From Chamaesiphon sp. (GTDB lineage: Bacteria; Cyanobacteriota; Cyanobacteriia; Cyanobacteriales; Chamaesiphonaceae), in the NCBI GenBank assembly GCA_965246715.1, contig CBDFFH010000009.1:95239-159238 (forward strand): 64,000 nt of DNA, in the 5' to 3' direction. Position numbers and translations under genes: made by a program. Below, piece after piece: positions 57,012 to 64,000 of the stretch; position 1 is the stretch's first letter; each line of letters starts with the position of its first letter. A model generated the notes under the pieces. It worked only from the letters and a program-made list of their open reading frames with translations. It ran no database searches and had not been told where the DNA came from.

Positions 57012-57120
57012 CGCACGATTGAAATCGTCGCTGGTGTTGCGAAGTCCGCCTTCGCGGACTGGGATTTTTTAACCCGCGAAGGCGGGTTTTGCAACATGAG
57101 CGGCGGTTTCAACCGCTGAC
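57012..57120. repeat. REPIN-like unit, family C, copy 1
   Basis: CGCACGATTGAAATCGTCGC..AGTCCGCCTTCGCGGACT..AACCCGCGAAGGCGGGTT..GCGGTTTCAACCGC. Confidence 0.85.
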
Positions 57121-57623: not shown

Positions 57624-57731
57624 CGCACGATTGAAATCGTCGCTCATGCTGCAAAGTCCGCCTTCGCGGACTAAAATCCCCAACCCGCGAAGGCGGGTTT
57701 TGCATCACAAGCAGCGGTTTCAACCGCTGAC
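57624..57731. repeat. REPIN-like unit, family C, copy 2
   Basis: Direct repeat of 57012-57120. Confidence 0.85.
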
Positions 57732-57739
57732 TAACCGAA

Positions 57740-60376
57740 CTAACCCAAACCACCCTCCAACTCCGCCTTAGCAACCCCCAAAGCCTCCTTCACCTTACTC
57801 GCATCCCGTCCCCCAGCCTGAGCCAAATTCGGTCGCCCACCGCCGCCACCACCGCAGATCTTCGCAATATTACCGATAAACTTCCCAGCCTGCAAACCCT
57901 TGGCATTTACCCCCTTACTAAAAGCCGCCACCAAACTCACCTTATCCGGTTCGGGAATTGAGGCCAGCACGATCGCGCCTTCACCGAGTTTATTTAATAA
58001 CCGTTCCGCCGCAGTTTGGAGCGCATTAGGATCGACATCACCGAGTTCGGCGATGATGATTTTAAACTCACCGATCGATATCGCTTGCGATAGTAATTGT
58101 TCGGATTTAGCGATCGCAAGTTCGCCCTTCACACTCTCCAATTGCTTCTGATTAGCTTTGAGTTCAGTTTGCATTGTCGAGATTCGATCGAGGATTTCTT
58201 CGGGTTTAGCTTTGAACCTGTCGCTCAATTCCTTGACTATTCGATCGCGCACATTTAGATAGTCTAAAATTGCATTGCCCGCTACCGCTTCGATCCGCCG
58301 CACACCAGCCGCAACACCAGCTTCAGAGATGATTTTAAACGCCCCAATTTCGGCAGTATTACTAACGTGAATCCCGCCGCATAATTCCATCGATACGCCA
58401 GGGAAATCGATGACGCGGACTTCGGCACCGTATTTTTCACCAAACATCGCTATGGCACCTTTAGCCTTAGCTGATGCGATCGGCATTACTTCAATTTCTG
58501 CTTTATGAGCCTCACCAATCCAGGTATTTACCAAATCTTCTACCTGTTGAACTTCCTCAGATGTGAGAGCGTGGGAACAGTTGAAATCGAATCGCAATCG
58601 ATCGAATGAGACTAATGAACCTGCTTGAGAAATTTCAGGATCGACAAATATTTTCAATGCGGCTTGTAATAGATGAGTCGCTGTATGGTTAGCTTGAGCG
58701 CGACGACGATAATCAATACTGATTCCAGTGTTAACTATATCGCCAACTCTTAAACTTCCACGTTCAATTGTTCCAAAGTGAACAAAGAAAGCAGACTCCT
58801 TTTTCACATCATTAATAAGGACTAATAAATTATCCGCCACTATGTGACCGCGATCTCCAACTTGTCCGCCAGATTCCGCATAAAAGGGAGTCTTATCTAA
58901 AACAATTTGCACAGTCGTTCCGGCATCCGCTTCAGACACCGACGTACCTGCAACTAATAACGCAACTACTTCAGCCTGACTAGTAAACTGAGTATAGCCG
59001 AGAAATTCAGTCGCCTGAATCGTGTTTGCGAGGGTATCTAAGGAACCTTGAACCGTGAGATCGATCGATTCTACCGCACCACGCGATCGATCTTTCTGAA
59101 TTTGCATTTCCACTTCAAACCCATCTGCATCAACAGTTAAACCCTGTTCCTCGGCGACTTCTTGCGTCAATTCCAACGGGAAACCATGAGTATCAAATAG
59201 CGTAAACGCATCCTTCCCCGAAATCTCCTTCACTCCCTGACTGAGCGCATCCGCAATAATATTCGCCAGTAACTTCTCGCCATTCCCCAGGGTTTTTAGA
59301 AACTGAACTTCCTCCCGCTGAAGTTCCGCCTTAATTTTGTCAGCCTTCTCCCGCACATTGGGATAAGCAACTTCCGACATTGCGATCGCACTTTCAGCTA
59401 CCTTAGTCGTAAATTCAGCATCAATGCCAATCAACCTGCCATGACGCACTACCCGCCGAATTAACCGCCGTAAAATATAACCCCGCCCAGTATTTTCAGC
59501 GCGAATTCCATCGGCGATCATATGCACAACCGCCCGAACATGATCGCCGATTACCTTCAGCGAAGTCTTAGTTTTTTCATCACTACTAAAATAATCAATT
59601 CCGGCAATATCTGCCGCAGTTTGAACGATCGGAAAAATCAGATCCGTCTCATAATTATTCGGTACATCTTGCAGGATTTGTGCCATCCGCTCCAAACCCA
59701 TCCCCGTATCGATGTTCTTATTCGCTAACGGTGTGAGATTGCCATCAACATCGCGGTTGTACTGCATGAACACCAGATTATAAAACTCAATAAATCTGCT
59801 GTCATCCTCCAAATCGATCTCATCATTCCCCAATTCGGGATGGAAATCATAATAAAGCTCAGAGCATGGCCCACAAGGCCCTGTCGGCCCCGATACCCAA
59901 AAATTATCATCAGCACCCAACCGCTTAATTCGCAGGGGATTCACGCCAATCTTGTCCCGCCAGATCGCAAAAGCCTCATCGTCATCCTCAAACACGCTGA
60001 CCACCAACCGCTCCGGCGGCAGCTTAAACACCTGCGTCGAGATTTCCCAACCCCAGTGGATCGCTTGCTCCTTAAAATAGTCCCCAAAGCTAAAATTGCC
60101 CAACATCTCAAAAAACGTGTGATGCCGCGCCGTCCGCCCCACATTCTCGATATCATTGGTACGGATACATTTCTGGGAAGTCGTCGCACGGGGAAAATCG
60201 GGCTGGCGTTGACCCAAGAAAATCGGCTTAAATGGTAACATCCCCGCGATCGTCAATAACACCGTCGGATCTTCCGGCACCAACGAACCGCTCGGCAACG
60301 GCTGATGTCCCCGCTGGCTATAAAAATCGAGGAAAGCTTGACGGATCTTGGCACCACTGAGTTTGAGAGCAGACAT
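57740..60376 (-). CDS. alaS: Alanine--tRNA ligase
   Basis: [50 protein letters not shown]. Confidence 0.98.
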
Positions 60377-60551
60377 AGAATTTTAAATAGGGATGGCAGT
60401 ATAGTCTCGGGTAGGTAGGGGGCATTGCTACCCCTTTCCCCCCGATAAACCGTGCTTAGGTTGAGTCGAGGGCAGGTATTAACCTGCGCCCCTCTCAGTT
60501 AGAACCGTGCGTAATACTTTCGCATTACACGGCTCCCGAATTACTAGGCGA

Positions 60552-62057
60552 TTAAGCCTTGCTCATGTGGATGTAGTCGTGGCAGGATTCATGTATTGCT
60601 ACAAGATTATTCTGCTTCCAATTATTATGATTCTTGTCTACATGATGTAGATGAATCTTTTCATCCCCTACGAATTTTAGTCCGCAGGATGCACATGAAT
60701 GGTTTTGCCGCACGAGGGCTTTAGAGGTTTTGCCTTCATAGAGTTTTGATTTTCTCTCGCTCCAGTAGGTTACATCGCCATCATAAGGTGATTTCTCTCC
60801 TTTGACATTGATATATTTGTTTTCGGAGTAAGGAACCGATGGAAATGCTTTATCCAATAATGCTTTGGATGTATCGCGATTCTGTTTGGTTTCCTTGTTG
60901 AATAACTTGTAGGCTCTGTATTGGATGTGATACAAGGAGTTCCTTGAACCATCCATTTTACAAAACCGATGGTAATTCCTCCAGCCTCTTACGATTGGTG
61001 CCAGCTTTTCGGCTTTTACTATCGCTCCATAGTTCGAGTTGTTGACGATGACTTTTACTTTCTTACGGAATGCTCGATGATTATCCGTTGAAGGAACACA
61101 TCGAAACTTTCCGCTTGATTGCACTTTAAAGTGCCATCCGAGGAAATCAAATCCATCTCTCGTAGCAGTAACTTTGGTCTTTCTTTCGCTGACCTTCATT
61201 CCCCTGGCGGATAGGAACGCGCTAATTTCTTCAAGTATTAATTCCGCGTCTTCGCTAGGTTTCAATATTATCACCATGTCGTCTGCATAGCGAACTGACT
61301 GGTGAATATTCTCGATTTCATTAAGTGCGATGTTGGCTAGAAGTGGGCTAACCACGCCACCTTGCGGTGTTCCTTGGTCTGGAAATCCTACGTTTGTACC
61401 AGCTTTTAGACATCGGAAAATACCGAGTTTCAGTCCTGCTGGTGCAATAAGATTATCCATAATTGCAGAGTGATTAATCCGGTCGAAACATGCCTCAATA
61501 TCAAGTTCGATAACTCGTTTATTGATTCCGTTGCTTTGTGAGCGCAGATTATGAAACAGGTATTTCTGTGCGTCATGAGCACTTCTTCCCGTCCGAAATC
61601 CGTAGCTCCTTGCATGGAAGGTTGCTTCGTGCGCTGGTTCTAGAGCGTATTTGGCTAAACATTGCCAAGCTCTGTCTGAGATAGTCGGCACTTTTAGCAT
61701 TCGTGTTGTCCCGTCTTTTTTAGGGATTGGGATTTCTCTTAGCTTTTGGTGCTTCCAGTCGGTATGATTGAGACTAATATGATTCTCTAGGGCAAAGCGT
61801 TCTTCAAAGGTGAGGGACGCTTTCCCATCAATACCTGCTGTTTTCTTTCCAGCATTGAGTTGTGTTACTTGTCGAATAGCGAGCATTCTCGCGCCTTTAG
61901 ACTTCAGAATCAATTTCTGTAGTTTCCGTGCGTTACGCTTGTCTAATCTCTGAACTGCTTTGTAAACGCGTTTTTGTAACCGAAAGAGCCTTTTGGAAGC
62001 TTTCTTCCAATTGAAGCTCTTCCACGACTCGCTAGCCGTTAGGCTGCTCTTAATCAT
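60552..62057 (-). CDS. Group II intron reverse transcriptase/maturase with HNH
   Basis: TAGIDG, SYGFR, GTPQGGVVSPLLAN, RYADD, FDFLG, GWRNY, CxxC/HH/HxxCH. Confidence 0.95.
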   Translation of the reverse strand: MIKSSLTASESWKSFNWKKASKRLFRLQKRVYKAVQRLDKRNARKLQKLILKSKGARMLAIRQVTQLNAGKKTAGIDGKASLTFEERFALENHISLNHTDWKHQKLREIPIPKKDGTTRMLKVPTISDRAWQCLAKYALEPAHEATFHARSYGFRTGRSAHDAQKYLFHNLRSQSNGINKRVIELDIEACFDRINHSAIMDNLIAPAGLKLGIFRCLKAGTNVGFPDQGTPQGGVVSPLLANIALNEIENIHQSVRYADDMVIILKPSEDAELILEEISAFLSARGMKVSERKTKVTATRDGFDFLGWHFKVQSSGKFRCVPSTDNHRAFRKKVKVIVNNSNYGAIVKAEKLAPIVRGWRNYHRFCKMDGSRNSLYHIQYRAYKLFNKETKQNRDTSKALLDKAFPSVPYSENKYINVKGEKSPYDGDVTYWSERKSKLYEGKTSKALVRQNHSCASCGLKFVGDEKIHLHHVDKNHNNWKQNNLVAIHESCHDYIHMSKA

Positions 62058-62297
62058 GATTTACTCCAATCTGTTTAATCTGTAATCCTCAAGGCAATTA
62101 TGCCTTGTCCTACCCGCGTTTGAGGGATTAATCGCTTCGTCCCGTCTACCATAAGCTCGACAGCTCATAGACCTCAAACACGTTTTTATTCGTTCCATCC
62201 ATTCGATTGATTGTTCCCTTAGACGCTTCCATTTCAACTATCGGAACCCCATACTCTTGCAGCTATTAACTTGACGATGCTGCGGGATACTAATCTC

Positions 62298-63265
62298 ACG
62301 TCAGTTCGGGTTAAGCCGAAGGCGGTAACACCCACTCAAATCCAAGAGAGGGCTTCTTCGGCTGATGGCAATAGGCAATTAAACCACACAAAACATTCAC
62401 ACAAAAGTTGACGGGGCTACGATGACGAGAATGTTCGACTTGGGAAATATTTTTGAGCTGGTCAATAATCGTTTCAATAATTGAACGTTTTCTGCTCAAA
62501 AATTTGTCATTTAAACGCATTAATTTGTTCTTCATATTTCGCTTCGGTTTAGCGAAAAATTCTATTCCCTCATCTTCAAATAACTGTGTTGCTAATGATT
62601 GAGACACATAGCCCTTGTCAGCAAAAATCTTACCAAACAGAGATGAAACTAAGTTTAGGACTGGCTTGCGATCGTCAATATTACCAGGGGTCAGCATGAT
62701 ATTTAGAAGTTCACCGTTTTCATTAGCTACTAGATGTAACTTAAAGCCAAAGAACCAATCCACAGAGGTTTTGCCGCGAGCCGCCAGATTTTTAAAAACT
62801 TTATGTCCAGATATCCGTCGATTATGGCAGACTTTTAAACAAGTGGAATCAATAAAACTAATCCCTGTGCAAGCACCAAAGCACTGCTTGAGATAAACAC
62901 ATAAGGGCATCAGTGTCTGAGGTATCCATTCTACAAACCGTTGATAGCTGGGCAATAGGGGAAAAGCATCTGCCCAATAAACACTTACATGGTCGATGTA
63001 ATAATGCTTGAAATTTCGGTAATGGTGCTGATGAAATGTTATCAAAATCGTCATGATTTCACTCAAACAGAGGCTTTTGGCTCGGCGACGGGTTTTGCTC
63101 CCATCGGAAATGAGCTGTAAGTGCCAGCTCGGTTCAAACTTTTGGCAGAAATTGTCGATATCACAGAATAATGCATCTAAACTATTCATAGGAGGGTGTG
63201 CTAAATCGTTGATAGTAATACCTTTTAGCTTAACGCCCCCTCCTTTTCTTAACCCGAACTGACGT
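62298..63265 (-). mobile_element. IS982-family insertion sequence
   Basis: 18-bp TIR ACGTCAGTTCGGGTTAAG; 7-bp TSD TAATCTC (62291-62297, 63266-63272). Confidence 0.95.
62311..63189 (-). CDS. IS982 transposase
   Basis: IDST, WFFGFKLHL, ADKGY, RSIIET. Confidence 0.95.
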   Translation of the reverse strand: MNSLDALFCDIDNFCQKFEPSWHLQLISDGSKTRRRAKSLCLSEIMTILITFHQHHYRNFKHYYIDHVSVYWADAFPLLPSYQRFVEWIPQTLMPLCVYLKQCFGACTGISFIDSTCLKVCHNRRISGHKVFKNLAARGKTSVDWFFGFKLHLVANENGELLNIMLTPGNIDDRKPVLNLVSSLFGKIFADKGYVSQSLATQLFEDEGIEFFAKPKRNMKNKLMRLNDKFLSRKRSIIETIIDQLKNISQVEHSRHRSPVNFCVNVLCGLIAYCHQPKKPSLGFEWVLPPSA

Positions 63266-63630
63266 TAATCTCCGATGAAGTCATGGTTTTCGGTTGTTAC
63301 CCATGCTTCTTGGTAAGTTGCTTTTGAAGGAAGTTCGTTAATCTCGTCATAGGAACTCGCTATTAGCAGCAGTGTCAGCTATAACTCGCTGTCTGATTCC
63401 GCCCTGATCCCGGCTTCGCTCTATAAGATTCCGAACTTACTCGGCGCGGGCAGGTAAGCAGTCACTCCTGAGTTTGGAGGGAAGGACTTGCACCTTCATC
63501 AATTGGATAGTTCAAGCCTTGAGGTGCTACATGTCTAGTAGCCAGCTTGGATTAGTTATTTACGGACTGGGTACCGCGATTGACTAATCAACGAATCGCA
63601 CCAAGTTTCCAAGTACACGGCTTGAGCAAT

Positions 63631-64000
63631 TCACTTTTGATGGTGGATTTTGTGGTGACAGTATTGATGAACCCAGATTAAATTTCTGATTTCATCTTTG
63701 CCATCTTGAATTTTGGGGATGACGTGGTGCAAGTCTATCGGTTCGTCATTAAAGAGCGATTCCCCGCAGACAGTACATTTATATCCTTGGTTATTGGCTA
63801 CTTTTTCTTTGGTTTTATTATATCTAGTGGCTTCACTCTTAGCTTTAGTTTTCCATCTTTTCTCCCAGTACTCCTTGCGTTTACGGTCATCTGGGGAGGC
63901 AGTTTTAGTTACCATTGCATACCTCTCGATATTAAACTAAGCGAATCTGAGCATGTATGCCCCTATCTTTTTATCGCCACAGTCCCATTTGGAATTCCTC
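63631..64000 (-). pseudogene. C-terminus (DNA-binding/HNH region) of the outer intron RT with a premature stop
   Basis: ...GAYMLRFA*FNIERYAMVTKTASPDD...CTVC...HH...HQYCH; TAG at 63937-63939. Confidence 0.8.

Follow-up and report, generated by a model that had tools for sequence, protein, structure and literature searches.

The first twintron to be described, that of psbF in Euglena gracilis (Copertino and Hallick 1991), consists of a group II intron inserted in domain V (DV) of another (PMC8393795); insertion in DV is the oldest known twintron layout. Twintrons described as bacterial are known from Thermosynechococcus elongatus, Methanosarcina and Trichodesmium (PMC4424553, PMC4649490), which agrees with the remark of an earlier note on this DNA that cyanobacteria have them. 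In T. elongatus, EBS divergence followed by retrohoming is a published route (PMC2882425). The introns M.a.I5, UA.I3, P.l.I2 and B.th.I3 target the RT genes of other introns, homing to their RYADD motif (PMC2504315). No DV-splitting bacterial twintron was found in the open literature, subscription papers and intron database pages being outside reach, and the accessible portions of PMC12584367, PMC4028801, PMC7049729 and PMC5572947 describe no bacterial DV insertion.

The locus reported here lies in the window, that is, the whole analysed stretch of 64,000 nucleotides from a Chamaesiphon sp. genome. Whereas the Euglena psbF twintron sits in an essential chloroplast gene and its sequential splicing was reported, the present one is bacterial and intergenic, its inner intron encodes an RT and its outer intron is probably dead. 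It resembles TeI3/TeI4 of T. elongatus, which are cyanobacterial IIB introns that diversify their EBS and retrohome to new sites, some of them within introns (PMC2882425), but those belong to an ORF-less family with repeated insertion at one domain IV site, and here a single ORF-bearing copy is found in DV. The Tr.e.I7/Tr.e.I8 twintron of Trichodesmium is likewise cyanobacterial, and its host intron resembles our inner intron in starting with GUGCGAUUC, in carrying an insertion at the base of domain I and in encoding a short protein (449-472 aa); there, however, the insertion is in domain I, a gene is interrupted and splicing was shown in vivo (PMC4649490). The RYADD-homing introns, like the inner intron, target a conserved region of other group II introns, but they form a lineage with a common target, which the family of the inner intron does not have. 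Finally, the inner intron has the EBS1/EBS2/EBS2a/EBS3 code and the extra stem-loops at the base of domain I of cyanobacterial IIB2 introns, although its protein is 32% identical to that of N.sp.I4 and its IBS2a lies at -13 and not at the usual -14 (PMC8643678).

A group II intron inside domain V

The features of the locus are the following.

57740..60376, minus strand: alaS (alanyl-tRNA synthetase), the uninterrupted neighbour, starting 28 nt past the outer intron
60404..60446, minus strand: outer DVI, whose 3' end is atypical in having two additional bases ahead of the terminal AC or else no AY
60447..60458, minus strand: 3' part of the outer DV, positions 23-34 (bulge, lower stem)
60459..63601, minus strand: inner group II intron of chloroplast-like IIB type, beginning with GTGCGATTC and ending with ACC; its length is 3143 nt, or 2168 nt when the IS is discounted
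60459..60535, minus strand: inner DV (60535-60502) and DVI, with the branch A at 60466, 8 from the end
60552..62057, minus strand: open frame for the 501-aa protein of the inner intron, which has an RT with YADD, a maturase and an HNH
62110, minus strand: gamma (G) in J2/3, pairing with the last intron base, 60459
62232, minus strand: EBS3 (A), pairing with 60458, where the 3' exon begins
62268..62273, minus strand: EBS1, whose 6 nt lie within a loop of 15 nt and are the complement of exon -1 to -6
62298..63265, minus strand: IS982-family element of 968 nt with 18-bp terminal inverted repeats and a 7-nt target duplication; its transposase gene spans 63189-62311
63309..63315, minus strand: EBS2a (63315) and EBS2 (63313-63309), identified by covariation with exon -13 and -8 to -12
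63602..63623, minus strand: 5' part of the outer DV, positions 1-22 (AGC triad, GAAA loop), holding IBS2a (63614), IBS2 (63613-63609) and IBS1 (63607-63602)
63631..64000, minus strand: tail of the outer intron protein gene (HNH end), with TAG in frame at 63940-63938; the contig ends at 64000 and truncates the gene there

On the minus strand the inner intron opens with GTGCG at 63601 and closes at 60459, cutting the outer DV between positions 22 and 23. When 39 genomes of the family were searched with the 399 nt upstream of the junction, the outer intron was found in 4 of the 38 others, and in all four the left DV half runs straight into the right half with no C between them, so that base 60459 belongs to the inner intron. 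The rejoined DV matches that of intact relatives exactly; it has 34 nt, the AGC triad, a GAAA loop and a 2-nt bulge, together with two U-U mismatches in the upper stem. The three uninterrupted copies that were scanned all scored above the RF00029 cut-off (47-55 bits). The central proposal of the earlier note, an inner intron inside the outer DV whose rejoined halves give a 34-nt DV followed by DVI, is thereby confirmed. One intron is precisely inserted in another and the empty site exists, and the twintron layout is real and mapped to the base. By a stricter definition a complete outer intron is needed, and only its 3' part is present in the assembly, the gap at the contig end leaving some doubt.

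Logan contigs of all four runs examined contain the joint that skips exactly 3143 bases. They also span both junctions of the occupied site with no differences: record 1 of run X1 corresponds to 60409-60708, and record 10 of run X2 to 63455-63631, reaching 30 letters past the 5' junction, one below the bridging rule; X1 and X2 may be the source sample itself. As the joined form is also present in the DNA runs X1-X3, its occurrence in RNA run X5 reflects empty alleles, not splicing. In RNA runs X5 and X7, relatives at 90-99% were seen and the window's locus was absent.

The inner intron has the GUGYG start, the DV/DVI (RF00029 at 60460-60537, 58.5 bits) and the RT-maturase ORF of a group II intron, and its EBS1, EBS2 and EBS3, with EBS2a, pair with the exons as in subgroup IIB. 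In its protein RVT_N, RVT_1 and GIIM were recognized, HNH scored above the Pfam cut-off and TIGR04416 reached 282 bits, under its cut-off of 300; the closest solved IEP is 6ME0 (E 1e-66). One copy is present in the source genome. Its assignment to the CL class is presumptive. With the IIB2/CL2 type as characterized in PMC4649490 and PMC8643678 it shares the start and the extra stem-loops, the latter seen as two hairpins at intron positions ~12-90, but in its RT the FLG motif is not followed by the insert of about 16 residues noted for that type (PMC8643678, legend to Fig. S2).

The IS982 element lies in the inner domain I between EBS2 and EBS1, 17 nt before EBS1. The assignment is based on NF033520 (261 bits, cut-off 130), the inverted repeats and the target duplication, and the insertion is recent, since four further copies in the source genome are 99.9-100% identical. 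An IS-free allele was not seen among the joints listed in the Logan runs. The minimum-energy fold closes the IS on its own repeats and keeps the EBS1 hairpin; according to this model, inner splicing may survive the IS.

As the earlier note had deduced from its reconstruction, the inner intron ends with ACC and not with AY, a result borne out by the empty sites and by the covariation of EBS3 and gamma. In the 53 relatives for which both ends are available, the window included, the 3' end is ACC in 40, AAC in 10, ACT in 2 and ATC in 1. EBS3 makes 43 Watson-Crick and 7 G-U pairs, with 3 mismatches, to the base after that end, and gamma covaries with the last base (G with C in 51, A with T in 2). 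Another placement of the extra C, as IBS3 of an intron ending with AAC, was rejected: the C is absent from empty sites, EBS3 pairs with it in only 18/53, and the RT frame at L024/L025, read by eye, is restored only with the C in the intron. The ACC end is a family-wide trait and nothing special to this locus. The published IIB2 coordinates give ends of ATC, AAC and ATC for the three introns checked (PMC8643678 Table S3), and non-AY ends are already implicit in them. No statement of an ACC end was found in the literature, though the boundary consensus of PMC4028801 or the supplement of PMC4649490 may hold one. An abundant cyanobacterial family thus ends one base past the AY-rule or Rfam placement, and its exon junction calls change.

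Target recognition and insertion sites of the family

The loops EBS1, EBS2 and EBS3 were located by covariation over 23 introns with the IS removed, each exon position giving 18-21 Watson-Crick matches of 23; EBS2a was set by the rule given in PMC8643678 and faces the A at -13, which is present in 22 of the 23 exons. The window intron pairs at 12/12 positions of the 5' exon and 1/1 at +1. The earlier note had asked for the pairing of EBS1 and EBS2 with the DV flank to be verified, and it is complete (13/13 with EBS2a and EBS3 included). Since a genome should contain only 0.22 perfect sites on average, this pairing shows that the insertion is site-specific. It does not show specialisation, because 46 of 64 family members pair at 10/12 or better with their own, different sites (12/12 in 10 of them).

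To assess the targets of the family, 64 distinct 5' exons were collected, 60 of them from unselected protein searches; the window and three others chosen through the DV pattern were set aside. None of the 60 is DV-like, and the common EBS and target of a site-specialised lineage were found in 0/60. The EBS loops are hypervariable in this family, and even the nearest relative, L012 (89% amino acid identity, placed with a support of 1.0 in a FastTree tree of 65 proteins), differs in its EBS and in its target. The 3'-junction pattern gave 369 matches in 126 of the 401 genomes of the order; among the 150 matches listed, which were read by eye and include related families, only the window's has the DV 3' strand after the junction. 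The suggestion of the earlier note that targeting DV is a strategy finds no support in this family, given these homologs at unrelated targets (0/60 relatives, 0 of 149 other listed 3' junctions). That note had named failed EBS pairing together with unrelated targets among homologs as evidence against it: the homologs do have unrelated targets, but the pairing holds. We also observed that one 3.8-Mb genome (G054) has 75 matches to the family's 3'-end pattern, and that in L070 (4022, 6220) and L119 (38) the 5' end of a family member lies directly on the 3' end of another copy, in head-to-tail tandem, with poor EBS pairing at these junctions.

A scan of 185,579 species genomes for the left DV half followed by such an intron start returned 72 stretches. 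One relative, 64% identical and present in Cyanothece sp. BG0011 (two contigs), occupies the same DV position, 22|23; its own EBS matches its site with 9 Watson-Crick and 2 G-U pairs of 12, and it branches outside all other proteins in the tree. One further stretch at 22|23 is a short fragment that belongs to a different family. A relative at 73% identity lies 2 nt beyond a DV. These two hits in the DV area by relatives (64% and 73%) exceed the expectation of blind chance: DV is reachable and has been reached more than once by family members. The 13-base target of the window intron occurs perfectly 70 times in 301 genomes. Contexts were read for 46 of these, including all 22 with A at -7, and 12, in 8 genomes, are DVs, all 12 among those with A at -7, so that DVs offer a ready supply of intron targets for this variant. 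The DV of the inner intron itself does not contain the motif.

A second copy of the variant was not found in genomes, viral contigs or plasmids. The scan of 185,579 genomes, from which the source genome or a very near one may be left out, showed no second junction with this target, and the pattern scan of viral contigs gave none. All 25 plasmid matches begin at or near the first base of the intron (query position 29 or later, the intron starting at 40), and the DV half is not included in any of them. In Logan runs, close relatives are preceded by other 5' exons.

The outer intron and the origin of the arrangement

The window is the last 64 kb of its contig, and upstream of the junction the outer intron is represented by 399 nt. 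This piece resembles an intact 2.38-kb intron (L199, 558-aa protein) at 91% over the 399 nt, and its protein tail is 89% identical over 122 aa to that intact protein; the closest solved protein to this type is again 6ME0 (E 2e-120). The 5' part was not found in the source assembly, which is 99.8% complete, and could lie in an assembly gap. Of 27 loci fetched, 24 alaS upstream regions were read and 22 have no outer intron. In the near-complete genome G026 (3 contigs) the same piece (98%) precedes alaS at this very position; it lacks the inner intron and is truncated at the 5' end, with no more than 531 nt left. Because the tail contains a TAG, the 3' end is altered and the 5' part is missing, also from the G026 copy, the outer intron is probably a relic, truncated at its 5' end and older than the inner insertion, an order deduced from this one relative. 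The claim of the earlier note that the outer ribozyme can work only after the inner one has spliced is then probably moot.

Upstream of alaS (window 60377-60404), the outer relic replaces a promoter-like stretch that most of the 22 other loci of the genus have conserved; no copy of this stretch was found at another place in the source genome. A promoter scan gave 15 weak sites against 6.8 expected, none of them near alaS. Downstream of alaS, two related palindromic repeats (57050-57116 and 57645-57733) flank a small ORF at 57604-57128.

In our judgement the inner intron is quite probably an ordinary member of an EBS-variable family that retrohomed into a matching DV site of an intron relic, itself probably already dead, and the event was likely a one-off landing of a known kind and not the act of a dedicated intron parasite. 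Drift of the EBS would have given this copy a specificity coinciding with a DV stem-loop common to several other cyanobacterial introns; a lariat-protein particle would have reverse-spliced into the DNA site through EBS1/EBS2/EBS2a/EBS3 pairing, and the inserted intron would have been copied by target-primed reverse transcription, the established mechanism of the class. The intergenic relic would have been a harmless landing place, and IS982 would have arrived after the inner intron. Should the locus be transcribed, splicing of the inner intron would re-form the outer DV, but the outer intron itself would still be unlikely to splice. The single locus matters little in itself: it is a clean bacterial case of the oldest known twintron layout in which the outer intron is probably dead. 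It is unlikely that we are looking at a newly specialised parasite of DV, with an EBS set kept by selection and spreading among targets that are renewable, transcribed and harmless. The full pairing with the DV site, the share of DVs among the target matches (12 of 70, and 12/22 with A at -7), the absence of the motif from the intron's own DV, the distant relative at the same DV position and the other lineages of the source genome in or just after DV would all fit such specialisation, but the intron is single-copy in its genome, neither the 185,579 genomes nor the viral contigs yielded a second junction with the target, the close relatives in Logan have other 5' exons, and the enrichment of the motif in DV is partly due to construction. 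That DV is an evolutionary attractor at which unrelated lineages arrive by EBS drift, with this copy a DV parasite caught at birth, is an idea we entertain only tentatively. On that reading, an intron that splits the catalytic hairpin of its host would silence or hijack a competitor, and introns would be in conflict with one another.

A working twintron, with an outer intron complete beyond the contig end and both introns splicing in order, is very unlikely. The rejoined DV is indeed that of intact relatives, the inner ORF is open and the predicted fold with the IS retains the EBS1 hairpin; however, the outer protein has a stop and the outer 3' end is altered, no 5' part was found in a 99.8% complete assembly while the G026 copy is 5'-truncated, and in an intergenic element nothing needs it spliced. 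Least credible of all, and close to negligible, is a chimera of two repeats made during assembly, a possibility which the earlier note had raised. The position at the contig end of a genome rich in introns and IS, as well as the empty form in DNA runs X1-X3, are in keeping with it, but EBS loops 290 and 1330 nt away match the junction at 13/13 where 0.22 perfect sites per genome are expected, the cut is precise to the base and Logan contigs cross both junctions cleanly, so an artefact is unlikely.

Other introns associated with domain V

At least three lineages in the source genome land at DV positions, namely 20|21, 22|23 and 34|35, and the family of the inner intron has reached 22|23 at least twice. 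If selection and not chance brought several lineages to DV in one genome, this would be a testable case of intron competition through the catalytic core. A second intron family, encoding a 603-aa protein, is represented by five copies in the source genome:

C2:26006-28437, second family copy
C20:257365-259792, second family copy
C34:17478-19905, second family copy
C39:116140-118567, second family copy
C43:41063-43490, second family copy

The copies are more than 99.6% identical and all five lie in other introns at DV 20|21. The left halves at these sites are of 2 kinds and the right halves of 4; at C2 and C34 the two halves do not match each other, which suggests recombination. The 57%-identical relatives of this family (in G479) sit in RT genes, not in DV, and a simple search found no EBS1 complementary to the target. 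A five-copy family that is always in DV is a better lead than the window locus.

In 27 of the 72 scan stretches (Microcoleus, Nostoc and other cyanobacteria), an intron starting with GTGCGGTTCG directly adjoins the end of a complete DV. Such introns follow DV in the source genome too, at C43:36507 and C39:118582, and 6 nt further at C43:38797 and C32:34538. Cyanobacterial introns starting with GTGCGATTCG (L059, L066, L072, L095 and L110) lie inside DV at 20|21, 22|23 and 24|25, the right DV halves having been found for L059 and L095. In the source genome, the region C43:34300-43600 holds at least five group II intron starts within 9 kb, several of them at or beside DV.
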